A stretch of DNA of 56,835 bases from positions 1 to 56,835 of the IMG/VR virus record IMGVR_UViG_3300029309_000046. The stretch is one strand, 5' to 3'. This document shows, one piece after another, positions 7,725 through 55,709 of this stretch. The translations under genes and the position numbers were made by a program. Every line of letters starts with the position of its first letter. Positions within the stretch are counted from its first letter, which is position 1. The notes beneath the pieces were generated by a model. The model saw nothing but the letters and a program-made list of their open reading frames with translations, was not told where the DNA came from and ran no database searches. This DNA is from a virus (lineage: Duplodnaviria > Caudoviricetes).

Positions 7725-8228
7725 TTGAATTATAAAATAATTGATAATTTTTTAGAAGAAGAAAAATTTAATAATTTGAGTAATTTTATAAAAGGCACAG
7801 ATATACCTTGGTTTGTTAACGAAGATGATGTTGAAAATAATACAAAAAATAAAAATGGTTTTTTTAGACATGTGTTTTACCACCGTTATGAATCTAAAAG
7901 TAATTGGATTACAAAAATTAATCCTATTATGGAAAAATTAAATCCTATTAGTCTCATCTCTATAAGAGCAAATTTAAATGTAAGAGATATAGATTCTGTT
8001 GAATCTTCTTATCATATAGACAACAAAAGTTTTTTAGCTCACACTGCTATTTTTTTTCTCAACGATTGTAATTCTAAAACATTTTTGAAATTACCTAATA
8101 AAGAGATAATTGTTGGAAGCAAAGAAAATAGAATGCTTATATTTAAATCATCAATATATCATAAAGTGATATATGCTACCGATATACATAAAAGATATGT
8201 AATTAATTTTAATTACATTCAAGATTAA
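7725..8228 (+). CDS. 2OG-Fe(II) oxygenase-like
   Basis: HID...TAIFFLN...ENRMLIF...H...RYVINFNY. Confidence 0.75.
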   Translation: MNYKIIDNFLEEEKFNNLSNFIKGTDIPWFVNEDDVENNTKNKNGFFRHVFYHRYESKSNWITKINPIMEKLNPISLISIRANLNVRDIDSVESSYHIDNKSFLAHTAIFFLNDCNSKTFLKLPNKEIIVGSKENRMLIFKSSIYHKVIYATDIHKRYVINFNYIQD

Positions 8229-8230
8229 AA

Positions 8231-8704
8231 ATGAATTTTAAAATAATTGACAATTTTTTAGAAAAAGATTGTTTTGATAATATAAAAAAATTATCATGGG
8301 ATGCAAAAATTCCTTGGTATAAAGGAGAAGTAAATGATGTAGATGATAGTATATATTTTACTCATATTTTATTTGATGGGGAAAAATTACAAGTTTCTTA
8401 TTTATTAGAAAAATACAAACCATTAATTTCTTTACTTGAAATTAAATCATTAATAAGAATTAAAATTAATTATTATCCATCTAACAATGTAGTTAAAAAA
8501 CATGAATATCATTTTGATAAACCTTTTACTCACAAAGGCGCAATTTTTTCATTAAATACTTGTGATGGAGGAACATACATTCAAGATGAATTTGTACCCT
8601 CTATAGAAAATAGGTTATTATTATTTAATCCTGCAGAAAAACATTGTAGCACTGATACTACTGATAAAAAAGGTAGAATGAACATTAATTTCAATTATTT
8701 TTAA
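8231..8704 (+). CDS. 2OG-Fe(II) oxygenase-like (paralog of previous)
   Basis: HFD...AIFSLNTCDGGT...ENRLLLF...H...RMNINFNYF. Confidence 0.75.
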   Translation: MNFKIIDNFLEKDCFDNIKKLSWDAKIPWYKGEVNDVDDSIYFTHILFDGEKLQVSYLLEKYKPLISLLEIKSLIRIKINYYPSNNVVKKHEYHFDKPFTHKGAIFSLNTCDGGTYIQDEFVPSIENRLLLFNPAEKHCSTDTTDKKGRMNINFNYF

Positions 8705-24355: not shown

Positions 24356-24528
24356 TGGCAACTGTAAAAGGTGTATACGATTTAATAAAAGCTGATCAAA
24401 AAGCAGGTAAACCTTTATCTGAAATTGATCTTGCAATACTTAAAGCTGTAGAGGGTGAGAATAAAGATAAAAAAACAAAAGAAGTAGATGTTTCTTTTGT
24501 TAAGAATAAAGATGAAACGGATTCGTAA
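24355..24528 (+). CDS. Small hypothetical (57 aa)
   Basis: Manually read MATVKGVYDLIKADQKAGKPLSEIDLAILK...; TAATG coupling. Confidence 0.6.
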   Translation: MATVKGVYDLIKADQKAGKPLSEIDLAILKAVEGENKDKKTKEVDVSFVKNKDETDS

Positions 24529-25168
24529 ATATCCATATAAACATTATAATAGATTTTCAGATACTACAGGACGAAAATATCTTGTAGGAGAGGCTAAAGT
24601 TCCAAGCGTTACCACAATTTTATCAGCTACGAAGGACAAAAGATTTTTAGATAATTGGCGTAGAAAAGTTGGGAATGAAGAAGCGGATCGAATTATGCAA
24701 CAAGCATCTACGATTGGTACAGAAATGCACCAAGTATTAGAATACGCTTACAATGGAGAGGGCTATTTTAATGCAAGTGAATCGGGTAAACAACCACGGA
24801 TGATGGCCAAAATTATTTTAGATAATTTAGATATAGAAGAGGTTTGGGGTAACGAGGTGTCATTAGAATATGAAAACCAATACGCAGGCACAACAGATTT
24901 AGTTGCAATGGCCTACGGTAAACCATCTATTATAGATTTTAAACAAGCTAACAAACCCAAAAGAGAAGAATGGGTTGATGATTATAAACTTCAACTAGGT
25001 GCATACTATCTTGCACATAAGAAAAATTACGGACCAATAGAACAAGGTGTAATTAGTATTTGTACAAGAGGATTACAATATCAAGAATTTAAATTAAATG
25101 AAGCTGATCTATCTGAATATGGTGATAAGTTTTTAGAAAGAGTTGAACAGTTTAAAAAATTACAATAA
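24512..25168 (+). CDS. PD-(D/E)XK exonuclease (Cas4/RecB-like)
   Basis: PSVTTIL, GTEMH, NEVSL, YAGTTDLV, IIDFKQ, QLGAY; start could be 24488. Confidence 0.85.
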   Translation: MKRIRKYPYKHYNRFSDTTGRKYLVGEAKVPSVTTILSATKDKRFLDNWRRKVGNEEADRIMQQASTIGTEMHQVLEYAYNGEGYFNASESGKQPRMMAKIILDNLDIEEVWGNEVSLEYENQYAGTTDLVAMAYGKPSIIDFKQANKPKREEWVDDYKLQLGAYYLAHKKNYGPIEQGVISICTRGLQYQEFKLNEADLSEYGDKFLERVEQFKKLQ

Positions 25169-26590
25169 CCAATCCTTAAGTTCTTCTTCACCTAAAGTTT
25201 TCGCTGCGATCTGGCCTTTTTTAGTTAAGGCCTTCATTATCTTTTCATCAATGGTATTTTCTGTAATTATATCTATAATCACTACCGTGCCGGTCTGTCC
25301 TGATCGATGCGCTCTATCTTCAGATTGTTTTCTGACTTCTAAATTATAATTATTAGAAAAATAAACCACTGTGTTCGCGGCAGTAAGAGTTAAACCGTAA
25401 CCACCCGTTGTAGGATTACTAACAAAAAATCTAACTTTAGGATCGTTTTGAAAAGACTCTATGGCCTTTTGTCTATCCTTAACTTTAGTAGCCCCATAAA
25501 TTTCAACAAAAGAATCTTTACCATACTTAGTTGTAAGAAAATTTTTAATTTGTTCTATGTTATAAATGTAATTAGCCCAAATAATTATTTTATCATCAGT
25601 CTCTTCAATAATTTCTTCTAAAGCATTTATCTTTTGTTTTCCAAATTCAAGAATATTACCATCGTCATCTTTACAAAAACCATTTGTAAGTTGATGTAAT
25701 TTAATCATTTCAGTTAATTTATTACTAAATGATATAGTTGAATCGTTTACAATAGCTAATGCTCGCCTTCTAAGTTTTTCATAAAGAACACCTTGCTCTG
25801 TTGACATATGTACAACTCTTTTCTGTCTTACTTTTGGCTCAAGATCTAAACATTCATCTTTACGAACTCTAAAAGAAAAAACATCTAGTTTGTGTTCTAG
25901 CTCTTCTATATTTTTATAAAACTTTGGAATAGATATATATCTATTTGCACCCATCTGAATCTGTTGCATCTCTGCATATCTGTTTCTAAAAGCGTAATAA
26001 CTTTCATATCCTAACAATTTAGGGTCTAAAAAATAACACTGTGAATATAAATCAAGGGGAGATTTAGTTACAGGGGATCCTGTTAATATTCTTCTATATT
26101 TAATATGTTTTGTTAAAGATAGTATATATTTAGTTCTTTTGGCCTTAGGGTTCTTAATTGTGGTAGATTCATCAATAACAACAAAGTTCTGCGGAAATTT
26201 TTTCAAAAAAGACTCAGCTTCTTTGAATCCCGTTTTACCACTTAAAGCTTCAACATTCATAAGAAATATCTTTAGTTTCTCACTTTTTAAAAACTTATCC
26301 CACATTTTAGGTTTATCAACCTTCCATTGAAATATATCTCTTTGCACTATATCTGGTAGGTGTGCTTGTATTTCTTTACTCCATATAGTGTATACAGATT
26401 TAGGTGCCACTATTAGGACAGTATCTATTTCTTTTTTTAAATATAAATAACCAATATTATCAATCGCAGTTTTTGTTTTACCCGTACCCATCTCCATAAA
26501 ATAAGCATAAGCTAAAGAGTGAGCTGATTTATTTAAGGCAGTTCTTTGGTGATCAAACGGTTTTGTCTTGTAAGGGTATTTCCATTCCAT
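25160..26590 (-). CDS. SNF2-family (DExH-like) helicase
   Basis: FMEMGTGKT, VVIDES, RILTGSP, GYGLTLTAA, QSEDRAHRSGQ; start at 26590 (MEWKYP) preferred. Confidence 0.9.
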   Translation of the reverse strand: MEWKYPYKTKPFDHQRTALNKSAHSLAYAYFMEMGTGKTKTAIDNIGYLYLKKEIDTVLIVAPKSVYTIWSKEIQAHLPDIVQRDIFQWKVDKPKMWDKFLKSEKLKIFLMNVEALSGKTGFKEAESFLKKFPQNFVVIDESTTIKNPKAKRTKYILSLTKHIKYRRILTGSPVTKSPLDLYSQCYFLDPKLLGYESYYAFRNRYAEMQQIQMGANRYISIPKFYKNIEELEHKLDVFSFRVRKDECLDLEPKVRQKRVVHMSTEQGVLYEKLRRRALAIVNDSTISFSNKLTEMIKLHQLTNGFCKDDDGNILEFGKQKINALEEIIEETDDKIIIWANYIYNIEQIKNFLTTKYGKDSFVEIYGATKVKDRQKAIESFQNDPKVRFFVSNPTTGGYGLTLTAANTVVYFSNNYNLEVRKQSEDRAHRSGQTGTVVIIDIITENTIDEKIMKALTKKGQIAAKTLGEEELKDWLL

Positions 26591-26657
26591 AAAATATTTA
26601 TATTTTTTTTCTTGCATTAATCAAGAAAATAATTATAGACAGATTAGGAGGAAATAT
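26591..26657. promoter_or_regulatory. Divergent sigma70-like promoter pair with overlapping -35 boxes
   Basis: CTTGCATTAATCAAG gives TTGCAT (+) and TTGATT (-); RBS AGGAGG before 26658. Confidence 0.55.
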
Positions 26658-27206
26658 ATGGAAAATCTAGACATCGAAAAGTTCTCGAACATTGAATTAA
26701 GTAAAGATGACGTAAAGTCTATTTCTGATAAATGTAATGAACTTAAAAATCTTCATAAAGAAATTGAAGATAAAGATAAAGAGATTTCTGAGTTAAAGAA
26801 AAAAGCTAAAGAGTATGAGGAACGAACAATTCCTGATATGATGCAGGAAGCTGGTGTGTCTAAACTAGAACTAGCTGACGGCACTAAGGTTGAAGTAAAA
26901 CCTTTTTATGCCGCAAAAATTCCTGAGTCAAGAAACGATGAAGCTTTTGGTTGGCTTAGAGATAACGGTCATGGCGACATGATCAAAAATGTCTTGACGG
27001 CAAATATAGATAAAGGGCAAGATAATCAAGTTTCAGAACTCGTAAGAATTTGTGAACAACTTGGTTTTGCTTATACTCAAAAACAAAAAGTAGAACCTAT
27101 GACCTTAAAAGCATTTGTTAAAGAGCAAGTGGAAAAAGGGGAGCAGGTTCCATTTGATATGTTTGGAGTATATATTGCTAACAAGACAAAAATAACGAAC
27201 AAATAA
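26658..27206 (+). CDS. Conserved replication-module protein
   Basis: IPDMMQEAGV..L.L.DG, AFGWLRDNGHGDMIK, VEPMTLKAFVKEQ. Confidence 0.65.
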   Translation: MENLDIEKFSNIELSKDDVKSISDKCNELKNLHKEIEDKDKEISELKKKAKEYEERTIPDMMQEAGVSKLELADGTKVEVKPFYAAKIPESRNDEAFGWLRDNGHGDMIKNVLTANIDKGQDNQVSELVRICEQLGFAYTQKQKVEPMTLKAFVKEQVEKGEQVPFDMFGVYIANKTKITNK

Positions 27207-27219
27207 TAACGGAGTAACT

Positions 27220-28011
27220 ATGAAGTTAAACGATAAAAAAGAAGTCGCTACTAGAGAAGCTGGTGGTGCTGTTGCAAATATTAATTTGGAACAATTTGCA
27301 GATCAAGGTTTTGAAAACGTAGACTCAAAGAGTCTGGCATTACCTTTTTTAAAAATACTTGGTCAACTATCTCCACAAGTAACGCAAGGAGATTCTCAAT
27401 TCATACCTGAGGCAAGACCTGGTATGATTTTCAACACAGTCACAAATCAATTATATGATGGCCAAAAAGGAATTTCAGTAGTTCCTTGTTTTTATAAGCT
27501 TGAGTATATTGAATGGAGAGATAGAGGTCAGGAAGGTAGTTCTGCGCCAGTAAATATCTATCCATCAGACAGTGATATCATGTCAAAGACAACTAGAGAC
27601 GACAAGAATAAAGACAGACTTGAGAACGGAAACTATGTCGAAGAGACTGCTTCTCATTATGTTTTAATTGTTGAAGATAAAGATGTGTCTAGCACTGCGA
27701 TGATGACAATGAAATCTACTCAAAGAAAAAAGTCTAAGAAGTGGAATTCTATGATGATGTCAGTTCGAGAGAAGAAAAAAGATGGGTCTGGTTACTTTAA
27801 GCCAGCACCATTTACTCAAATGTACACACTCAAAACGGTACTAGAAAAGAACAATCTTGGTTCTTGGTACGGTTGGGAGATTGAACATCAAGGTACAATT
27901 CAATCGAAAGATGTCTTAGAAGCGGCTTATACTTTTTACAACAGCTGTAAACAAGGGGCTGTAAAAGTTAATCACGATAAAGAAGAGTCCGTAGAGAAAA
28001 CACCATTCTAG
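27220..28011 (+). CDS. Single-stranded DNA-binding protein-like
   Basis: LPFLKILGQLSPQ, MKSTQ.KKSKKWNS, acidic C-terminus ending PF; position upstream of primase. Confidence 0.6.
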   Translation: MKLNDKKEVATREAGGAVANINLEQFADQGFENVDSKSLALPFLKILGQLSPQVTQGDSQFIPEARPGMIFNTVTNQLYDGQKGISVVPCFYKLEYIEWRDRGQEGSSAPVNIYPSDSDIMSKTTRDDKNKDRLENGNYVEETASHYVLIVEDKDVSSTAMMTMKSTQRKKSKKWNSMMMSVREKKKDGSGYFKPAPFTQMYTLKTVLEKNNLGSWYGWEIEHQGTIQSKDVLEAAYTFYNSCKQGAVKVNHDKEESVEKTPF

Positions 28012-28012
28012 T

Positions 28013-29587
28013 ATGGACATACTTGACAAAACCCTGGGGGAGTTTGTAGAACTCTTCCAGGGTTCAAATACATATTTTGGAGCTTCCAAACCTCTAGGAC
28101 AAACACGTAGTCGAGACGGTAAGCAAGAGTTCAGACATTGGGTTGAGCCTAATCCAATGACCAAAGAACATTGGTTACAACATTTAAAAGGAGAAGCTTA
28201 CTATGGATCTGTCCCTATCAGAGATGATAATACATGCAGTTGGGGGGTCATCGATGTTGATCGTTATAATATACAGCATAAGGAAATTATATCGATTATA
28301 CGGAAAAGGAAATACCCATTAATTCCATTCAGATCTAAATCTAATGGATTACATTTAATATTATTTATAGATGGTGTTGTTGAAGCATCATCAATGCGAA
28401 AAAAATTAATTGAACTTGCTTCTGATTTAGGAATCAATGATTCAACAACAGATATTTATCCTGCACAAGATCAAGTTGATTTAACCCCGGAAAAGTGGGA
28501 CGACAAACACAAAGGTAGTTTTGTTAACCTACCATATCAAAAAGCACACATGACAACTAGGTTAGCAATGGATGATAATGCTAACGGAATAAAATTAGAA
28601 AATTTATACGAATTTGTATCTCAACACAGATTGACACCTGAACAATTTAAAAAATTAAAAATATTTCAAGACGATGAAACAAAAGATTATCCTCCTTGCG
28701 TAATCAACTTTATGAAAAACAAAGTTAAAAAAGGAGAAGGCCGTAACGATGCAATGTTCAATGTTGCAGTATTAAGCAAGAAAATAAACCCTGATCCCGT
28801 CATGTATCAAGATTGGACAAGAAAAATGATGAACAAGGTATGCAGTGAAGAATTACATCCAAAAGAATTAGAAAATATTTTTAGAGGCGTTGAAAACAAA
28901 GACTATGCTTATAAATGTAAAACATCTATTGCAAGAGTACATTGTGTATCTAGCACATGTGTAAGAAGAAAATACGGAATAGGTTTGAATGAAGCAATTC
29001 CTGAGGTAGGTAAATTAATTAAAGTTAACTCATACCCTGAACCATATTGGATTTTACCAATACAAGGTAAATCAGTTCGTTTATCTACAAAACAATTATA
29101 TCAACAACAACTGCTTGGAGAACAATTATTAAATTACGATATAGTTTGGAGACCTCTTAAACCATCTAAACGTGATCCTGATCCTTACAGAGATTGGTTG
29201 GAAGAGTTAGTCTCTAACAAACAAGACATGGAAGGTTTTGATGCACATGAAGAACAAAGTGATGTGTTTAATTCTAGGCTATCACAATTTCTTGAGGACG
29301 TGGAGGACACAACAGAGTTTGATCAAATCGATTCTGGTAACATTTGGATTGATAAAATAGAAATGAGATTTAAGCTAGAAACCTTTAGAAAGTTTATGAA
29401 AAAGATGGGGTATAATTGGTCAGAAAAAGATTGTACTAAATTTTTAGAAGCGGGAGGAGCAATACCTAAAAAGAAATTTCAAAACATTGACACACGTCAT
29501 TGGGTTGTAAATTTACCAAAACAAACAGAGCATAAAAATAAAGATGTCAAATTCGTTAAACAAAAAGCTGCGTGGGAAGACAATTAA
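28013..29587 (+). CDS. AEP-type primase (prim-pol) with PriCT/Cys cluster
   Basis: WGVIDVD, RSKSNGLH, GSFVNLPY, PPC, GEGRND, YKC..HC...C. Confidence 0.75.
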   Translation: MDILDKTLGEFVELFQGSNTYFGASKPLGQTRSRDGKQEFRHWVEPNPMTKEHWLQHLKGEAYYGSVPIRDDNTCSWGVIDVDRYNIQHKEIISIIRKRKYPLIPFRSKSNGLHLILFIDGVVEASSMRKKLIELASDLGINDSTTDIYPAQDQVDLTPEKWDDKHKGSFVNLPYQKAHMTTRLAMDDNANGIKLENLYEFVSQHRLTPEQFKKLKIFQDDETKDYPPCVINFMKNKVKKGEGRNDAMFNVAVLSKKINPDPVMYQDWTRKMMNKVCSEELHPKELENIFRGVENKDYAYKCKTSIARVHCVSSTCVRRKYGIGLNEAIPEVGKLIKVNSYPEPYWILPIQGKSVRLSTKQLYQQQLLGEQLLNYDIVWRPLKPSKRDPDPYRDWLEELVSNKQDMEGFDAHEEQSDVFNSRLSQFLEDVEDTTEFDQIDSGNIWIDKIEMRFKLETFRKFMKKMGYNWSEKDCTKFLEAGGAIPKKKFQNIDTRHWVVNLPKQTEHKNKDVKFVKQKAAWEDN

Positions 29588-31732: not shown

Positions 31733-31796
31733 TAAAGTTTATTATTGTGCAGATTGTTATATAACTTACGTAATAAAAAATGACACATCAACTTAA
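31653..31796 (+). CDS. Small zinc-finger protein
   Basis: Manually read ...NCLKCQKKPVIIHNKVYYCADCY... (CxxC-CxxC). Confidence 0.55.
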   Translation: MAEKQNGIKKQKNNCLKCQKKPVIIHNKVYYCADCYITYVIKNDTST

Positions 31797-33648
31797 TTTT
31801 ATATACAACGACAGTGATTGGATCTGTCCTTCAGAATATCCAGATTTATCTCAAGCAAAAGAAATAGCAATCGATCTTGAAACAAAAGATCCAAATATCA
31901 AAACAAAAGGATCAGGGTGGGCCACATTTGATGGAGGAATTGTTGGCTTTGCTGTGGCGGCCTTCGATCAACAATGGTATTTTCCAATTCAACACGATGC
32001 AGGCGGTAACATGGATTTAACAATTACGTGTGCATGGTTTCAAGATATTTTAAAAACTCCTGCAACTAAAATTTTTCATAACGCAAGCTATGATGTGGGT
32101 TGGTTGTTAGTAAATGGTTTCGAAATAAATGGTAAGATAGTTGATACAATGGTTGCGGCTGCTATCGTAAATGAAAATAGATTTAGTTTTAGTTTAAATG
32201 CTTGTGCAAAAGACTATTTAGGTGAAATCAAAAATGAAACGTTTCTAAACGAAAAAGCTAAAGAATGGGGAATTGACCCTAAAGCTGATCTCTGGAGACT
32301 GCCTGCGGGCTACGTAGGCTTCTATGCTGAGCAAGATGCAGGGTTAACCCTACGGCTTTGGCAAAGACTAAAACAAGAGATTATAAAACAAGATCTTCAT
32401 GATGTTTGGGAAATGGAAATGGAGTTGCTTCCTATCTTAATCAAGATGAGACAACGGGGAATAAGAGTGGATGAAGCAAAAGCTCACTCTTTAAAAAAAG
32501 AGTTTAAAGAAAAAGAATCTATCGTTCTTAAAAAAATAAAAGATGAAACTACTATTAATGTAGATATTTGGGCGGCCAGATCTGTCGCGCAAGTGTTTGA
32601 TCGTATTGGTGTTGAGTACCCACGGACAACGAAAACCGAAGAACCTAGCTTCACGCAAAATTGGCTAATGAACTGTAGTAACCCGATAGCGCAACTAATA
32701 AGAGAAGCAAGAGAAATAAATAAATTCCATTCAACATTCATAGACTCCATTTTAAGATACACCCACAAAGGTAGAATTCATTCTGAAATAAATCAATTAA
32801 GATCTGATCAGGGCGGAACTGTTTCAGGGCGTTTATCATATTCAAATCCGAACTTACAACAAATCCCTGCAAGAAACAAAGAGTTTGGAGATAAAATTCG
32901 TGGATTATTTTTAGCTGAAGAAGGAAGACAATGGGGTAGCTTTGATTATTCACAACAAGAGCCTAGACTTGTGGCTCATTACGCGGCCTCAGTTGCAAAA
33001 CAATTTCCGGGGGCTGACGAATTTATTCAAGCTTATGAAAATGAAGAAGCTGACTTTCATCAAATAGTGGCTGACATGGCAGGCATATCAAGAACTCAAG
33101 CTAAAACAATTAACCTTGGACTATTCTATGGTATGGGTAAGGCCAAATTAGCTAAAGAGTTAGGTATAGATAAAGACTCTGCTGAAAGGCTTTTGATAAC
33201 TTATAATGACAGAGTGCCATTTGTTAAAAAATTAGCTGTAGAGGTGACTAACAGTGCCTCAAAATATGGCTTTATTCGAACGTTAAAGGGCCGTAAATGC
33301 CGATTTGACATGTGGGAGCCATCTACCTTCGGAATGAATAAAGCTATGCACTACGAGGAGGCTAAGGCCATTTATGGAAATAACATCAGAAGGGCTTTTA
33401 CCTACAAAGCTTTAAACAGATTGATACAAGGGTCAGCGGCCGATCAAACTAAACAAGCTATGATTGATTGTTATAAAGCGGGGTTTATGCCTTTACTACA
33501 AATTCATGATGAATTATGTTTTTCAATTGGAAATGAAAATGAAATTAAAACAATAAAAGAAAAGATGGAAAATGCAGTCGACAGTCTCAAAGTACCTTCC
33601 AAAGTTGATATTGCCCTCGGACGATCCTGGGGAGAAGCTAAGGAATAA
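31780..33648 (+). CDS. polA: Family A DNA polymerase with 3'-5' exonuclease
   Basis: AIDLET, FHNASYD, YAEQDA exo motifs; SGRLSYSNPNLQQIP, DYSQQEPR, RTQAKTINLGLFYG, IQGSAAD, QIHDEL. Confidence 0.97.
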   Translation: MTHQLNFIYNDSDWICPSEYPDLSQAKEIAIDLETKDPNIKTKGSGWATFDGGIVGFAVAAFDQQWYFPIQHDAGGNMDLTITCAWFQDILKTPATKIFHNASYDVGWLLVNGFEINGKIVDTMVAAAIVNENRFSFSLNACAKDYLGEIKNETFLNEKAKEWGIDPKADLWRLPAGYVGFYAEQDAGLTLRLWQRLKQEIIKQDLHDVWEMEMELLPILIKMRQRGIRVDEAKAHSLKKEFKEKESIVLKKIKDETTINVDIWAARSVAQVFDRIGVEYPRTTKTEEPSFTQNWLMNCSNPIAQLIREAREINKFHSTFIDSILRYTHKGRIHSEINQLRSDQGGTVSGRLSYSNPNLQQIPARNKEFGDKIRGLFLAEEGRQWGSFDYSQQEPRLVAHYAASVAKQFPGADEFIQAYENEEADFHQIVADMAGISRTQAKTINLGLFYGMGKAKLAKELGIDKDSAERLLITYNDRVPFVKKLAVEVTNSASKYGFIRTLKGRKCRFDMWEPSTFGMNKAMHYEEAKAIYGNNIRRAFTYKALNRLIQGSAADQTKQAMIDCYKAGFMPLLQIHDELCFSIGNENEIKTIKEKMENAVDSLKVPSKVDIALGRSWGEAKE

Positions 33649-33677
33649 TAATTGCAATCACTGTAATAACACAAGAG

Positions 33678-33815
33678 TTAATCTTGTGATTGAGGATCTT
33701 GAGATTCTTCATTCATCTCCTTGTCCTCATTGTTCTCCGACTCCTTCTTACTTTCGCTCTCTTGGATTTTTTTAAGTTCTTTATAATAGTTTGGGTGTTT
33801 CCATTCAAATGACAT
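33678..33815 (-). CDS. Small hypothetical (45 aa, MSFEWKHPNYYKELKK...)
   Basis: Manually read; purine-rich RBS AAGGA upstream; acidic tail. Confidence 0.6.
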   Translation of the reverse strand: MSFEWKHPNYYKELKKIQESESKKESENNEDKEMNEESQDPQSQD

Positions 33816-33838
33816 ATCTTTTTCCTTTTAGTTTATTT

Positions 33839-34536
33839 GTGAATATGGTCAAGATTGTTGTTATTTATTTAAACGTTTTAACTTTGCTTTATACTTTTTC
33901 AAGTAAGTCAAAGTTGTTTTATTTTTTGTTTCCCACTTTTTTACCAAAGCTTCAAAGTGTTTTATCTTTTTAAGCTTTTTGTCTTCAGGCGAGAGAACAA
34001 TTTTCTTTTTTTTCAAAGTACCATTTAACCAACCTTTGAATTGTACATACTTAATCATGTCCAATTCTAGTTCAGCTTGTTGGTAGCAATGATGGTTCAT
34101 GTTTGGCCTCAACCATTTATGAACCATGTGCGATACATCATGGATTAATCTTCTCCATCCATTATGTAAAGTTGACGGATCACCGGATAAGCAGATCCAA
34201 CATTTTCTAGTCCATGTCTCATAAGATTTTTTTCCTAAAGGTCTTATAAGCCTAATGGGCATTTTTCTATTAACCCATTTATATTCACCCCAGCCGTTAT
34301 AATTTCTAGCTGTTTTTTTTCTTCCAAACTTTCTAACTAAAAGTCGATATGCTCGTTGAGCTTCTTCTTTAGTTATGTATGGAAGAACATCGGGCAATGT
34401 TGAATTGCAATCTCGATATTTTTTCATGGTATTAAATTTGACATCTAACGATGCCATCATTGAGTCTAACTTGGTTAGAGTTTGACTGACTGATTTTTCA
34501 CTCATGTTGCTCTCCTTGTTACTTGACCATATTCAC
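33839..34536. repeat. Perfect 15-bp inverted repeat enclosing gene 33861-34505
   Basis: GTGAATATGGTCAAG at 33839-33853; CTTGACCATATTCAC at 34522-34536. Confidence 0.9.
33861..34505 (-). CDS. Hypothetical with zincin-like HDxxH motif
   Basis: RBS AAGGAG; GWRRLIHDVSHMVH...HH; basic coiled-coil C-terminus. Confidence 0.7.
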   Translation of the reverse strand: MSEKSVSQTLTKLDSMMASLDVKFNTMKKYRDCNSTLPDVLPYITKEEAQRAYRLLVRKFGRKKTARNYNGWGEYKWVNRKMPIRLIRPLGKKSYETWTRKCWICLSGDPSTLHNGWRRLIHDVSHMVHKWLRPNMNHHCYQQAELELDMIKYVQFKGWLNGTLKKKKIVLSPEDKKLKKIKHFEALVKKWETKNKTTLTYLKKYKAKLKRLNK

Positions 34537-34598
34537 GATGTTTAATAACTAAGTGACTTTTCTTATCACTAATAAAAATTTCTCATAAAAATTTTTAT

Positions 34599-34635
34599 AT
34601 TGACATTATACCAAATTGGGTTTTGTACTTTTTGG
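34599..34635 (-). promoter_or_regulatory. Extended -10 promoter (TGgTATAAT)
   Basis: Minus strand TGGTATAAT, hexamer at 34610-34605, ~100 nt upstream of the 34505 start. Confidence 0.6.
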
Positions 34636-34797
34636 TAAAAATATTTTTTTGTTAAATTCTAGAGCGATGAAGTTTTAGGGTGTTTAATTATAGATGCGAC
34701 AATTCGCAACTTTCTGGGATTTTGTGGGATTTCAGTTTTTTGAGGACAAACCTCCTCTAACAATGTTTTGAAAACAAAATTTGCAAATTAATTTTTT

Positions 34798-34986
34798 TTA
34801 ACTTGCTATGTCTAAAAGACCTTTTTTTGCGTCTTCGACACTTTGATCATTGATCTTAGTTCTAAGATCTTTAATCTTAATATCTATCCATTTCATATCA
34901 GGTGTCACTCTTCCTTGGCTCAAAGCTTGGTTTGCCCACTTTGATTCCAATTGGAGTTTCTCCGATATTAACTTTTGTAGTTGCAT
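34798..34986 (-). CDS. Hypothetical protein
   Basis: MQLQKLISEKLQLESKW...MKWIDIKIKDL; start may be 34995. Confidence 0.6.
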   Translation of the reverse strand: MQLQKLISEKLQLESKWANQALSQGRVTPDMKWIDIKIKDLRTKINDQSVEDAKKGLLDIAS

Positions 34987-35176
34987 CTCGGTCAACCTCC
35001 TCGAAGGTTAAGAACAAATGGTCAGGATTATGATATCCAGGCCCTTCTCTTTCTGTTACAACACCTGAGGCAACCTTCTTTACAAAATCCTCAAGTACGG
35101 CCTTATCGTTCTCAGCCTCAAGCATCTCATCAATATATATATTTTTATAGTTTGCTTGGACGCGATAAAGCTTCAT
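34898..35176 (-). CDS. Hypothetical protein, probably leaderless
   Basis: 92-aa ORF; ATG 5 nt after TATAAT. Confidence 0.6.
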   Translation of the reverse strand: MKLYRVQANYKNIYIDEMLEAENDKAVLEDFVKKVASGVVTEREGPGYHNPDHLFLTFEEVDRDATTKVNIGETPIGIKVGKPSFEPRKSDT

Positions 35177-35181
35177 GCAAG

Positions 35182-35211
35182 ATTATATATCAAAATGTGA
35201 TATAAATGCAA
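35182..35211 (-). promoter_or_regulatory. sigma70-like promoter TTGCAT-18-TATAAT
   Basis: Minus strand TTGCAT (35211-35206) and TATAAT (35187-35182). Confidence 0.7.
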
Positions 35212-35490
35212 CTATGTTGTAATTTTAGGTTTTTTTGGCGGTATAATTAGCTTTTCTTGAGGGGTTTTAATTTCTTCACATTGAAATTTTACAACGATTT
35301 TACTGTTTTCTATATAACCACTATCAAATTCTTCGGTGTTTTCTAGATTTTTAAATGTTCCGTAAGCTATACGATATCCAAATTCAACACACTCTGTATG
35401 AGTTGGAAAAGAATGGCCCGTATAATGATACGAAGGGCATTGGCCACTTAACACACTACACATGTACAAAACCACGTAAAATTTGCTCAT
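35212..35490 (-). CDS. Hypothetical Cys-containing protein
   Basis: KFYVVLYMCS....C...F...ECV..GY...VKFQC pattern. Confidence 0.65.
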   Translation of the reverse strand: MSKFYVVLYMCSVLSGQCPSYHYTGHSFPTHTECVEFGYRIAYGTFKNLENTEEFDSGYIENSKIVVKFQCEEIKTPQEKLIIPPKKPKITT

Positions 35491-35521
35491 AAATCTTATA
35501 TTATCCTATAACATTTTTTCC

Positions 35522-35551
35522 TTGCAAATCCCATTAAAATAATTATATAGT
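35522..35551 (+). promoter_or_regulatory. sigma70-like promoter TTGCAA-18-TATAGT
   Basis: Same CTTGCA-N9-AAAATAATTATA layout as at 26611. Confidence 0.6.
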
Positions 35552-35610
35552 AAGAGATGCAAATAATAAGAGTAGCACGATTAAAAACAAAAAACAAACA
35601 CAGAGACAAT

Positions 35611-35781
35611 ATGCCAAAAAATAAAATAAAAGTCCCCGTAATTTTAACGGAGGATGAAATTATAAACATCTTAAATAGATTTTCTATAGGTATGCTATCA
35701 GATAATCTAGATGACGATGATAAAAATTTAGCGCGTAAATTAAGTTACGCGTTAAAACAATGTGAAGGCGAGGGAAAATGA
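35611..35781 (+). CDS. Hypothetical protein
   Basis: ATG 35611 after an A/C-rich leader (ORF track start 35557). Confidence 0.55.
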   Translation: MPKNKIKVPVILTEDEIINILNRFSIGMLSDNLDDDDKNLARKLSYALKQCEGEGK

Positions 35782-36029
35782 TTAAATCAAATTCCGAAGC
35801 TTTCAGAGATTGGGTTAAAGAAATGGACAAGGTACTTTCTGAAACTCAAAACTTAACCATAGATGGTCAACCGATGGAAGCATCCGATGATCATTTTAAA
35901 TCACAAACAAAAAATCTTGCAAAAGTTCCGCTAGTCCTAGATGGTCAGGCAGTTTATCCACTTAATGATTGGACCGCTTCTGATTTAGTCCATAGTGAAA
36001 TTGATGCAAAAAATACGGAGTTAGAATAA
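35778..36029 (+). CDS. Hypothetical protein
   Basis: ATGA overlap, acidic 83 aa. Confidence 0.65.
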   Translation: MIKSNSEAFRDWVKEMDKVLSETQNLTIDGQPMEASDDHFKSQTKNLAKVPLVLDGQAVYPLNDWTASDLVHSEIDAKNTELE

Positions 36030-36811
36030 TGTCTAAAACAAAAAAGAAAAACGAGGATAATGTAATTCATATCACTCGTGATTACAGTATGTTTAAAACT
36101 GTAAAAGGTAATCGTGAAATAGATAAAGGTCACGTGCAAAAACTAATTAGGGAGATGAAGAAAAAAGATCTTGATCTGCCTATCTTTATCAATGAGAATG
36201 ACGAGGTAGTTGATGGTCAACATACTTTGCAAGCTCGAAAAGAGTTAGGAAAACCGGTCAGATACATAAGAGGTAAATTCGAAAATGAATTCGATGTTGC
36301 CATCATGAATGCTAATAGAAAAAATTGGCCCATGACCGCTTATCTAAACTTTCATATTGAAAATGGTAAAAAAGATTATCAAATCATTAAAGCAATGACG
36401 AAGCAATATTCTTTACCATTGGAGTGTGCAATATTTTTACTTGCAGGCGGATACTCAATGTGGAGAGAAACTAGAGCTGATTTTAAACAAGGTAAGTTTA
36501 GAATAAAAACTTTACAGAGATGTAATGAAATTGGTGCTGATCTAATGTTTATGAAAAACAACTTTAATATTAGGTTAACAAGATCTTTCATTACTGCGTA
36601 TGCTGTTGTTTCTGAACATCCTAAATTTAAATGGGATCGTTTCAAAACTGCGTTGAAATCTAAATCTGCGTTGTTATTGCGGGGTACTAACACGGAAGAT
36701 TTTGTTAGAGTGTTCGACAAAATCTATAACGGTAACGTGCATAATAAAATAAATTTTATTCGATATTTTATTGACCGTGAGTATCAAGAGGACGAGGAAA
36801 ATAACAATTAA
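36029..36811 (+). CDS. ParB/Srx N-terminal-domain protein
   Basis: GNREID..HV..L...M, PIFINE...VVDGQH.L.A...LG. Confidence 0.75.
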   Translation: MSKTKKKNEDNVIHITRDYSMFKTVKGNREIDKGHVQKLIREMKKKDLDLPIFINENDEVVDGQHTLQARKELGKPVRYIRGKFENEFDVAIMNANRKNWPMTAYLNFHIENGKKDYQIIKAMTKQYSLPLECAIFLLAGGYSMWRETRADFKQGKFRIKTLQRCNEIGADLMFMKNNFNIRLTRSFITAYAVVSEHPKFKWDRFKTALKSKSALLLRGTNTEDFVRVFDKIYNGNVHNKINFIRYFIDREYQEDEENNN

Positions 36812-36829
36812 TAGAGAGGACAAAGAAAG

Positions 36830-37045
36830 ATGGACATAAGTAAATGGAAATCCTGCGCCGTTGACATTGATACCTATTGCATTTTGCGTGCAATGGGTAG
36901 TCACGGCTTCAGGAAACCCGCTTCAATGATTGCAAAAATTACTGATGATGAGGTCAAGAAAATTGCAAAGAAGCAAAACCAACCTTATGAAAAAACAAAA
37001 GAAAATTTACTATCTCAAGGCCGAAAGCTTTTGAAGGGTAAATAG
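36830..37045 (+). CDS. Small putative DNA-binding (ribbon-helix-helix-like) protein
   Basis: MDISKWKSCAVDIDTY..L......R.P..MI pattern; RBS GAGG. Confidence 0.55.
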   Translation: MDISKWKSCAVDIDTYCILRAMGSHGFRKPASMIAKITDDEVKKIAKKQNQPYEKTKENLLSQGRKLLKGK

Positions 37046-37056
37046 CTGATCAGCGC

Positions 37057-37120
37057 GACAAGGCCTGGGAGACTAGGCCTTGTTAAGAGCGGTTAGTTAA
37101 TCGGGAACCTAACCGCCCTC
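37057..37120 (+). terminator. Two tandem hairpins after 36830-37045 (terminator or 3' stabiliser)
   Basis: GACAAGGCCTGG-GAGA-CTAGGCCTTGTT and GCGGTTAG...CTAACCGC. Confidence 0.5.
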
Positions 37121-37199
37121 ACTTACATATGTGATTTTTTTTCAAAATTGTACCAAAAAAATTTGTTGCATTACATATTATAATCCTATAAGTATTTGA

Positions 37200-37318
37200 T
37201 ATCGTATTCCATTACCTTAATGAAAAAGAGGGGTTAAGCTCTTTATCTTCATGAACCGCGAAAATTAGTTAATTAACTTTAAATTGAGGTTAGGTATGAA
37301 TACGGTATTTTTTGTTTT
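37200..37318 (+). ncRNA. Candidate structured small RNA
   Basis: Outer stem TATCGTATTC/GAATACGGTA, two inner stems, upstream TTGCAT, downstream T-tract. Confidence 0.5.
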
Positions 37319-37398
37319 AGAAATATTTCACGGCATATTTGTGAAAAATTTACGTGCGGAGTATCCATTCCATATCTTTTCCCCTCCGCACGTGAACT

Positions 37399-37590
37399 AT
37401 GAAACACTTAACTGAACTTGCTCAGGAAAACATCGAAATCTGTAAAAATTTAGAGGGCGAAGATCGATCTGATTTTATTCAAACTCACCTGGATGATTAT
37501 TATTTTGCGATGAACGTAGTCACTGCACCGAAAGTATTAAGGTATTATCGTGAATTATTCGTTAAACTTGTTAAAAATTTTGGGCATTAA
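37399..37590 (+). CDS. Hypothetical protein
   Basis: 63-aa ORF overlapping the next gene. Confidence 0.6.
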   Translation: MKHLTELAQENIEICKNLEGEDRSDFIQTHLDDYYFAMNVVTAPKVLRYYRELFVKLVKNFGH

Positions 37591-54285: not shown

Positions 54286-54697
54286 GGCACTTTTGAACGC
54301 GTATAAAAACGAGGAAGAAGTGAAAACAGTTCTAGATCCAAAAGCGATCGAACAATCAACATTAGATAAATTACCAAGTCCTACAGGTTATAGACTTTTA
54401 GTCTTGCCTTATGCTGGTCCTAAAAAAACCAAAGGCGGTATTTACTTATCTGATACAACACAAGAAACAATACAGATGACTACAGTTTGTGGTCTTGTGC
54501 TAAAAATGGGAGATCTTTGTTATCACGATAAAGATAAATTTCCAAAAGGACCATGGTGTAAACTAAATGAGTGGATAATATTTAGTAGATACGCTGGTTC
54601 AAGATTCAAAATAGATGGTGGTGAAGTAAGAGTGTTGAATGACGATGAAGTTATTTCAACTATTTCTAATCCAGCAGATATTTTGCACCATTATTAA
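54248..54697 (+). CDS. groES: GroES-like co-chaperonin
   Basis: PTGYRLLVLP, KTKGGIYL, VLKMG, RYAG, RVLNDDEV. Confidence 0.85.
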   Translation: MKMKSTEVPKRTEALLNAYKNEEEVKTVLDPKAIEQSTLDKLPSPTGYRLLVLPYAGPKKTKGGIYLSDTTQETIQMTTVCGLVLKMGDLCYHDKDKFPKGPWCKLNEWIIFSRYAGSRFKIDGGEVRVLNDDEVISTISNPADILHHY

Positions 54698-54707
54698 GGA
54701 GGAATAA

Positions 54708-55709
54708 ATGGCAGAAGAAAATAAAAGTCCAGAAGTAGAAATTGATACTGATGGCGTTAACGAAGAAACAATAAACGTAGATGCACCAGAAGTATCTAAT
54801 GAAGCCTTTGAAAAAAAACAAGATGTTGACTTAGGGTATACAGATGTAACTGGTGGTAAAACTGCAAAACAACTTTTAAAAGAATCTAAAGAAGAACCAA
54901 AAGAAGAAGTCCAGATTGAGGAAAAACAAGAGAAAAAAACTCAATCCGATGAAGAAGGTTTGGAGGATTATTCTGAAAAAGTTAAAAAAAGAATTTCTAA
55001 GTTAACTTTTCAGGTAAGAGAAGCTGAAAGAAGAGAAAAAGCAGCTACTGAGTATGCAAAAGGCTTAAAAGATAAATATGAATCAATTTCTAAAAAGTTT
55101 GATGAAACTGATACAAATTATCTTAAGGAATACGGTTCACGTGTTGATGCAGAAAGAGAAAAAGCAAAAAACGCTCTTAAAACTGCATTAGAAGCAAACG
55201 ATGTGAATGCCATAGCTGATGCTCAAGATGTTTTAGCTAAGCTTTCAGTAGAAAAAGAAAAAGTTGCTTTAGCACAAGCTGAAAAAGAAGTGAAAGCTAA
55301 AGAAGCTGCTGAAAAGAAAACTGACGAAACACCTTCACAACCACAACCTCAAATATCACAAAGAGCTCAAAGTTGGGCTGAAGATAATGAATGGTTTGGC
55401 TCTGATAGAGTAATGACCTCAGCTGCTATGGGTATCCATGAGGATTTGATACAGCAGGGAATTGACGCAGAGAGTGATGAATACTATAATCAAATAAACA
55501 AACGTATGAAGGAGTATTTCCCTCAAAAGTTTGCTCAGAGTTCTACGGAAGAAACACCTATGAAGCAACCCGTCCAAAACGTAGGTTCAGTTAGTAGAAG
55601 ATCTGGAGGACGCAAGTCTGTGAAACTCACCAAATCACAGGTAGTTATCGCTAAGAAATTAGGGGTGCCACTAGAGGAATACGCAAAATACGTGAAGGAA
55701 GGAGCCTAA
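54708..55709 (+). CDS. Capsid scaffolding protein-like
   Basis: Acidic coiled coil, YSEKVKKRISKLT, WAEDNEWFG, C-terminal VKLTKSQV.IAKKLGVPLEEYAK. Confidence 0.65.
   Translation: MAEENKSPEVEIDTDGVNEETINVDAPEVSNEAFEKKQDVDLGYTDVTGGKTAKQLLKESKEEPKEEVQIEEKQEKKTQSDEEGLEDYSEKVKKRISKLTFQVREAERREKAATEYAKGLKDKYESISKKFDETDTNYLKEYGSRVDAEREKAKNALKTALEANDVNAIADAQDVLAKLSVEKEKVALAQAEKEVKAKEAAEKKTDETPSQPQPQISQRAQSWAEDNEWFGSDRVMTSAAMGIHEDLIQQGIDAESDEYYNQINKRMKEYFPQKFAQSSTEETPMKQPVQNVGSVSRRSGGRKSVKLTKSQVVIAKKLGVPLEEYAKYVKEGA

Follow-up and report, generated by a model that had tools for sequence, protein, structure and literature searches.

A phage protein gene enclosed by a covarying helix and preceded by a leader resembling that of the host rRNA operon

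Why is a phage protein gene enclosed by two sequences that are exact reverse complements of each other? The gene in question lies on the minus strand of the virus record IMGVR_UViG_3300029309_000046, which was analyzed over its whole length of 56,835 bases (completeness estimate 94%) and is called the window here. The sequence GTGAATATGGTCAAG at 33839–33853 recurs as its exact reverse complement at 34522–34536, which makes a perfect inverted repeat of 15 nt. Between the two arms lies an open reading frame (ORF) for a protein of 214 amino acids from a virus-only family (33861–34505), which we call the cargo. In the mRNA, the arms read GUGAAUAUGGUCAAG on the 5′ side (34522–34536) and CUUGACCAUAUUCAC on the 3′ side (33839–33853). 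The 3′ arm begins 7 nt past the stop codon. Between the 5′ arm and the ATG lie 16 nt, which include the Shine-Dalgarno sequence AAGGAG (34512–34517). We find that the arms pair in the mRNA, on the sense strand, and loop out the whole coding sequence, and that this frame is independent of the gene that it carries. The leader in front of the frame resembles, as judged by sequence, that of the host rRNA (rrn) operon. We consider it rather likely that the locus forms a self-contained expression cassette of the phage that reproduces the plan of an rrn unit in miniature: a host-type promoter comes first, a boxB-like hairpin and a boxA follow, and a leader-trailer helix surrounds the cargo. The arms, the ORF, two upstream hairpins, an extended −10 promoter, and a downstream gene for 45 amino acids had been listed in a first-pass annotation of the window, and all of them are present in the sequence.

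The window contains two perfect inverted 15-mers with a spacing of up to 1.5 kb, and second-order Markov shuffles give an expectation of 0.54. At least one such repeat was present in 31 of 100 shuffled windows, and the 15-nt repeat alone is therefore not significant. The reality of the repeat around the cargo gene follows from its conservation and covariation in relatives. The other perfect repeat of the window (8200–8214 and 8458–8472) is located inside two adjacent plus-strand ORFs and probably arose by chance.

Complementarity of the 5′ and 3′ flanks was examined in 61 distinct transcription units, which comprise members of the cargo gene family and cassettes found by the leader motif. A helix of 15–35 base pairs (bp) with a score of at least 33 connects the flanks in 45 of the units, and the remaining 16 are without it. 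Control scores obtained with the reversed 3′ flank range from 14 to 33, except for one unit (L099) at 43. In a close set of 22 sequences, 98.3% of the alignment cells belonging to the 14 pairs of the helix are paired, and six of the 14 pairs have changed on both sides. None of 500 shuffles reached as high a value, and slid registers gave 21–42% pairing. RNAalifold finds the cargo-enclosing helix de novo, and the helix is present in the minimum-free-energy and centroid folds of the predicted mRNA of the window. This pairing, with the coding sequence looped out, had been proposed in the first-pass annotation together with a search for compensatory changes in related phages; the folds, RNAalifold, and the covariation agree with it.

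The two strands of the helix are matched to each other within lineages. The mean score was 36.5 with the own partner and 23.3 (standard deviation 6.7) with partners swapped in from other lineages, and the own 3′ strand was the best partner in 24 of 41 units. The arms differ by lineage yet remain complementary, as in GGTCAAG/CTTGACC of the window, GATCCGGC/GCCGGATC, GACCCGC/GTGGGTC, and TGATTA/TAATCA. The inner part of the arms varies freely in sequence with pairing kept, bulges included. The helix of the window measures 15 bp, and those of relatives reach approximately 24–35 aligned positions with bulges.

The strand on which the pairing takes place can be read from the wobble pairs. Among duplex energies calculated for 35 distinct helices, which are not phylogenetically independent of one another, the sense strand is more stable than the antisense strand in 27, equally stable in five, and less stable in three. 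The isolated internal mismatches comprise 19 G·U and 2 A·C pairs, under a scoring that treats both alike. An earlier strand count over whole alignments was weaker (41 G·U against 26 A·C, p = 0.09) because zero-cost end extensions added A·C pairs. The helix ends 14–21 nt before the ATG in 44 of the 45 helix-positive units, which leaves the Shine-Dalgarno sequence free, and starts at a distance of 2–12 nt from the first stop-codon base, likewise in 44 of 45. A long-range translational switch by occlusion of the ribosome-binding site, one of four options raised when the repeat was noticed, is unlikely because the Shine-Dalgarno sequence stays outside the helix.

The same leader and arms enclose unrelated ORFs, which were located by scans with the conserved leader motif. 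An all-against-all BLASTP comparison of 34 cargos resulted in four clusters of 22, 6, 5, and 1 members. Two loci (L028 and L038) carry an ORF of 152 amino acids in the frame. Their arms are those of locus L016, which carries a homolog of the protein from the window, and their genome site is that of locus L093, which carries another homolog of this protein. Further cargos are found in L127, in L194, and in ten cassettes from a scan with the canonical boxA, one of which is doubtful. No alternative cargo received a Pfam or PHROG assignment. The enclosed coding sequences are 89 to 224 codons long. The cassettes lie beside the DNA polymerase gene, between large ORFs of unnamed function, or by other genes, and the neighbor downstream of the cassette is on the other strand in nine of nine loci examined. 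The frame is independent of the cargo and holds at least four unrelated cargo families at different genome places. Different cargo genes between the same arms were what the first-pass annotation had suggested looking for in relatives. Sixteen units of the cargo family are without the frame, and the protein thus does not need it.

The extended −10 promoter TGGTATAAT (34605–34613), read from the sequence, has a predicted transcription start at approximately 34598. A TATAAT-like −10, mostly with TG before it, is present at the same place in the leaders of relatives, and the promoter was not listed by a consensus promoter scan, which requires a −35. The predicted 5′ end of the transcript forms an A/T-rich hairpin of 12 bp (34572–34598), and an A/T palindrome occupies its position in all close relatives. 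The boxB-like hairpin AGTGA-loop-TCACT (34552–34570) follows and abuts the boxA-like element. Both hairpins are present in the minimum-free-energy and centroid folds. In relatives, the stem of the boxB-like hairpin is kept and the loop is variable; the hairpin is absent from 6 of the 22 aligned relatives and is therefore dispensable. The boxA-like element TTAGTTATTAAACATC (34537–34552) is unpaired in the fold, and its columns in the alignment of relatives are invariant or nearly so. In its conserved form, the cassette leader thus consists of a hairpin followed by TTAGCTATTWAACATYGTGAAT. The element TTAGYTATTWAACATY upstream of the 5′ arm is nearly invariant, yet it has no pairing partner in the lineage of the window.

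The DNA polymerase region of the window is 65–71% identical to that of the Pelagibacter phages HTVC023P and HTVC027P, and we compared the cassette leaders with those of Pelagibacter (SAR11) rrn operons. Of 120 Pelagibacter 16S loci fetched, 88 provided a usable leader. A hairpin directly before TTAG[CT]T..., most often TTAGCTATTTAAAAAGTAAA, is found in 86 of the 88 leaders, upstream of the 16S leader-trailer strand. The motif is followed by AAGAAGAGAAGTGTGGACGG, the complement of which lies past the 16S gene in a locus with a recovered trailer. One complete Pelagibacter genome has a single copy of the 12-mer TTAGCTATTTAA, which precedes the 16S gene by 141 nt. The 12-mer and the boxA consensus GYTCTTTAANA derived by Baniulyte et al. 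(PMC5725501) disagree at a single position.

Among 41 distinct cassette leaders, five contain the exact SAR11 motif TTAGCTATTTAA, 11 the exact consensus GYTCTTTAANA, 19 a match with one mismatch, and six, including the window, a match with two mismatches. The matches are at a fixed position, 42–56 nt before the ATG. Fifteen leaders without the helix have two to four mismatches to the boxA motifs, at scattered places. All 12 exact copies of TTAGCTATTTAA in 1.57 Mb of fetched viral DNA belong to cassette leaders, and one phage leader is identical to a host rrn leader at 21 of 22 positions. The order of elements, with the predicted promoter, the hairpin (boxB), boxA, and the helix strand at the position of boxC, is that of rrn operons. 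At the level of sequence, the leader resembles the host rrn leader, and the likeness to boxA is established for the relatives. The boxA-like element of the window is supported by its positional homology to TTAGCTATTTAA in relatives and by its near-invariance.

The cassette leaders come in two flavors, a SAR11-type motif GCTATTTAA and a canonical boxA GCTCTTTAACA or GTTCTTTAACA. They were observed in loci L074–L077, L101, L107, L109–L116, L194, and L348–L421, and lineages with GCTCTTTAACA include L074 and L109. The split may reflect different hosts. In L081, L093, L103, L038, L016, L059, L074, and L109, the 3′ arm is longer and also takes boxA into the helix, in which a bulged A recurs. The lineage of the window has lost this outer pairing and kept the boxA-like sequence.

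The cassette probably provides Nus-dependent, termination-resistant transcription together with RNase III-type processing or stabilization of the transcript. The boxA on the nascent RNA would recruit the host NusB/NusE and other Nus factors, which would make the RNA polymerase resistant to Rho and to pauses. Held at the polymerase, boxA would retain the 5′ strand of the helix by the RNA exit until the 3′ strand appears as well, and the helix would close, as has been proposed for rRNA. The closed helix could be a site of RNase III-type processing, a shield of the transcript ends, or both. RNase III and Rho were identified above the curated cut-off in three of three Pelagibacter genomes, and no RNase III is encoded by the phage in the window searched. 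In the cassette, as between the early genes of phage T7, cuts at double-stranded sites would release a phage mRNA; the T7 sites are hairpins formed locally, and that of the cassette would be a helix between the flanks of the gene. The outcome would be a defined, stable, and still translatable mRNA. The frame has spread among marine podophages with different accessory genes. We infer Nus factor binding, antitermination, assisted helix closing, cleavage, and stabilization or end protection. It is also possible, as a speculation, that the pairing of the trailer with boxA seen in many relatives sets the Nus factors free where the unit ends. Among the four options of the first-pass annotation, the two that agree best with the data are an RNase III-type stem and a gene set into the loop of a structured RNA.

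The closest known counterpart of the cassette is the rrn operon itself, in which boxB, boxA, and boxC follow the promoter in this order (PMC10250234). Leader and trailer form a covarying helix of 25–40 bp, the 5′ strand of which includes boxC, and an RNase III site overlaps boxC. In the tether model, NusB holds boxA at the polymerase, and boxC is thereby kept close to the RNA exit until the trailer has been transcribed (PMC10250234). The cassette shares with this arrangement the promoter-proximal hairpin, the boxA-like element, the 5′ strand of a covarying helix, and the 3′ strand just past the product. As in rrn, covariation of the pairs goes together with a conserved sequence in one section of the 5′ strand. 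Unlike rrn operons, the cassette is carried by a phage and encloses a protein gene of 89–224 codons with its own Shine-Dalgarno sequence, its helix spans 15–35 bp, and its boxA abuts the helix or lies within it. No Rfam family matches the region 33500–34900. The first-pass annotation had held that standard feature types do not explain the locus, which is half right: the frame matches the known rrn leader and leader-trailer helix. The cassette is a variant use of known designs, namely the rrn leader, the leader-trailer helix, and 5′/3′ untranslated region (UTR) pairing, as the frame of a phage gene. No description of protein-coding genes framed by a boxA leader and a helix was found in the literature searched, which left most subscription journals outside.

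Several observations weigh against a cassette that works in the manner of an rrn operon. The trailer of many relatives includes boxA in its pairing, which would compete with the binding of NusB/NusE. The helices of rRNA operons measure 25–40 bp compared to the 15 bp of the window, and boxA of Enterobacteriaceae rrn operons is located 18–19 nt before boxC, whereas that of the cassette abuts the helix. All 16 of the 61 units without the frame end in ordinary terminator-like hairpins. The copy of the motif in the window, TTAGTTATTAAA (34552–34541), has two mismatches to the SAR11 motif and two to GYTCTTTAANA. Matches with two mismatches occur in the window at the chance level (20 observed, 20.7 expected), so that the boxA reading of this copy rests on positional homology with the relatives. 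A NusB-like ORF is present in three of three Pelagibacter genomes, with a match (E-values of 2e-17 to 5.5e-15) too weak to reach the curated cut-off. A boxA in a 5′ UTR can, moreover, repress rather than antiterminate, as at suhB (PMC5725501).

The alternative that best withstands the evidence is a plain clamp of the 5′ and 3′ UTRs without a role of Nus factors, which we regard as unlikely. The helix and the 5′ hairpins would only protect the ends of the mRNA against ribonucleases or tune its translation, and the likeness to rrn would be incidental or used in another way. The established helix, strand, and geometry suit such a clamp, as do the hairpin at the predicted 5′ end and the chance-level motif of the window, and bacterial precedents exist. 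In hbs of Bacillus subtilis, a 14-bp interaction of the 5′ and 3′ UTRs modulates cleavage by RNase Y (PMC5737220), and in icaR of Staphylococcus aureus, pairing of the 3′ UTR creates a substrate of RNase III (PMC3868564). As in the cassette, the intramolecular pairing spans the whole coding sequence in both genes, and it is linked to RNase III in icaR and to protection from an endonuclease in hbs. However, the clamp leaves the near-invariance of the unpaired 16-nt leader element in the lineage of the window unexplained. It also gives no account of why the element equals the host rrn motif or the boxA consensus, with at most one mismatch and at a fixed position, in 35 of 41 leaders. The Shine-Dalgarno sequence is masked in icaR and free in the cassette. 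Furthermore, icaR and hbs are single chromosomal genes, whereas the cassette is a portable frame with a boxA leader common to unrelated genes.

A second alternative is that boxA acts negatively, as a sensor of the suhB kind. NusB/NusE bound near the Shine-Dalgarno sequence would block translation, Rho would terminate transcription, and the gene would be expressed only when free Nus factors are scarce; in a variant, abundant leader RNA would act as a decoy and withdraw Nus factors from the synthesis of host rRNA. The position of the cassette boxA, 42–56 nt before the ATG, and the presence of Rho in the host are compatible with this scheme. Ribosome-deprived cells have been reported in pelagiphage infections, in a study that shows no link to the cassette (PMC11066056). 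The architecture speaks for rrn and not for suhB, as boxA is followed by a long-range helix around the product, and the helix sits between boxA and the Shine-Dalgarno sequence. We consider this alternative very unlikely. The cassette does resemble lambda nut and suhB in being a phage or cellular mRNA leader with a boxA for NusB/NusE (PMC10250234, PMC5725501). Unlike in nut, its hairpin precedes boxA, which is the rrn order. We know of no N-like protein for the cassette. The coupling of boxA to a gene-enclosing helix, which sets the cassette apart from nut and suhB, is described in none of the passages and abstracts consulted.

Even less probable is an element that acts at the level of DNA, in which the arms would serve a mobile or invertible cassette as terminal inverted repeats or as recombination sites, or would be conserved boundaries used for modular exchange alone. 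Unrelated cargos do occupy the same frame at different genome positions: L016 and L038 have the arms in common and not the cargo, and L093 and L038 the site and not the cargo. A parallel is offered by the PeSLs of T4-type phages, conserved promoter/stem-loop cassettes that flank ORFans and mediate their shuffling (PMC2839356, PMC4122927). As with PeSLs, a conserved promoter-containing cassette goes along with the replacement of cargo between related phages. PeSLs, however, are local promoter/terminator stem-loops with many copies per genome, whereas the window has a single cassette, whose pairing bridges the gene and whose leader mimics that of rrn. The wobble pairs fit one strand, the inner arm varies with pairing kept and bulges present, and the arms are not flanked by direct repeats. 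Neither the cargo nor those neighbors that were searched matched a family of recombinases or transposases. The coding sequence reads away from the leader in 45 of 45 helix-positive units, an orientation for which the units found by the leader motif, but not those found by protein search, were selected. The strand asymmetry and the constant orientation disfavor the DNA inversion that the first-pass annotation had entertained. Homologous recombination at the conserved frame may be how the cassette spreads. The last alternative, a chance inverted repeat without function, has in effect been refuted, since the frequency of such repeats in shuffled windows is overridden by the conservation, the covariation, and the lineage-specific matching of partners.

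The roles ascribed to boxA leaders and leader-trailer helices are the production of ribosomes or, in lambda, N-dependent antitermination. Here, the two together appear to frame ordinary protein genes of abundant ocean phages and to be exchangeable between cargos. If the reading of the cassette as a miniature rrn unit is true, phages have a new route to exploit the host transcription machinery without a factor of their own. The cassette would also allow the tether model of long-range helix formation to be examined in a natural setting, with an insert that is short and non-essential, and would provide a compact design for insulated, termination-proof expression units. Phage genomes would, in addition, bear a sequence mark that mirrors the host rrn leader and may help to assign hosts to uncultured phages. 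We can extend this reading to a bolder one, which we think quite unlikely as a whole, in which marine podophages carry portable pseudo-rRNA operon cassettes. Mimicry of boxA would capture the rRNA antitermination and RNA-chaperone machinery, and the helix would excise the cargo mRNA like a pre-rRNA. Leader variants would track the host rrn leader and could provide a host-range marker, and the leader RNA may drain Nus factors and contribute to the ribosome deprivation reported for infected SAR11 cells.

The cassette is located at the end of the replication module, which is formed by a helicase, a primase, a second helicase, a kinase-like ORF, and DNA polymerase A. The polymerase gene (31780–33648) is on the plus strand, opposite to the cassette. 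Upstream of the cassette promoter, an A/T-rich intergenic stretch (34640–34800) lies between divergently placed minus-strand genes. Downstream, outside the helix, the ORF of 45 amino acids (33678–33815, minus strand; MSFEWKHPNYY...) has its own Shine-Dalgarno sequence. It follows the 3′ arm in HTVC023P-type lineages and is absent after the cassette in other lineages, and searches of Pfam and PHROG found no family for it. Metatranscriptome contigs from four runs over 33600–34800 comprise 150-nt pieces in the coding sequence and its neighbors, without usable ends, joints, or strand. The leader motif has one copy in the 56.8-kb record, and its interpretation as a repeated phage promoter was rejected on that account. 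Protein search and two leader queries identified no cassette in deposited phage records, where a low-complexity filter may hide A/T-rich leaders.

The cargo protein of the window has 79 relatives in metagenomes, and 20, then 77, related loci were found in viral contigs; there are none in the bacterial or archaeal genomes searched. The family is characterized by the motif CW[IV]CLSG..GWRRLIHD[VM][SA]H..H..Q.E. The protein has no match in Pfam, and its PHROG matches are weak. An AlphaFold2 model with a mean predicted local distance difference test (pLDDT) score of 85 retrieved nothing from the PDB at E ≤ 0.001 using Foldseek, and VIA-align matched its C-terminal helix alone (Z ≤ 5.8). The Atlas matches are viral clusters of hypothetical proteins, and the SprT-like lead that it also gave is weak (score 0.86, 18% of members), with no function assigned. 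The small cargos of L194, L374, L402, and L409 share N-terminal or internal segments as a mosaic and are linked in the clustering through partial matches, which suggests recombination inside the cargos.

The coding sequence of the cassette folds strongly, with z = −7.3 relative to dinucleotide shuffles, compared to −1.6 to +0.8 for eight other genes. Among related or alternative cargos, 18 of 19 have z ≤ −4.7, family members without the frame included. A strong fold specific to the cassette was rejected, as family members without the frame and other parts of the genome fold strongly too. A scan of the plus strand alone in 400-nt segments gave a median z of −0.71, with z below −3 in 40 of 283 segments and below −5 in nine; the segment starting at 34601 has z = −5.4. 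The strongly folding segments cluster in the replication region, and the intervals concerned are 24400–28400, 34000–37400, and 54400–54800.

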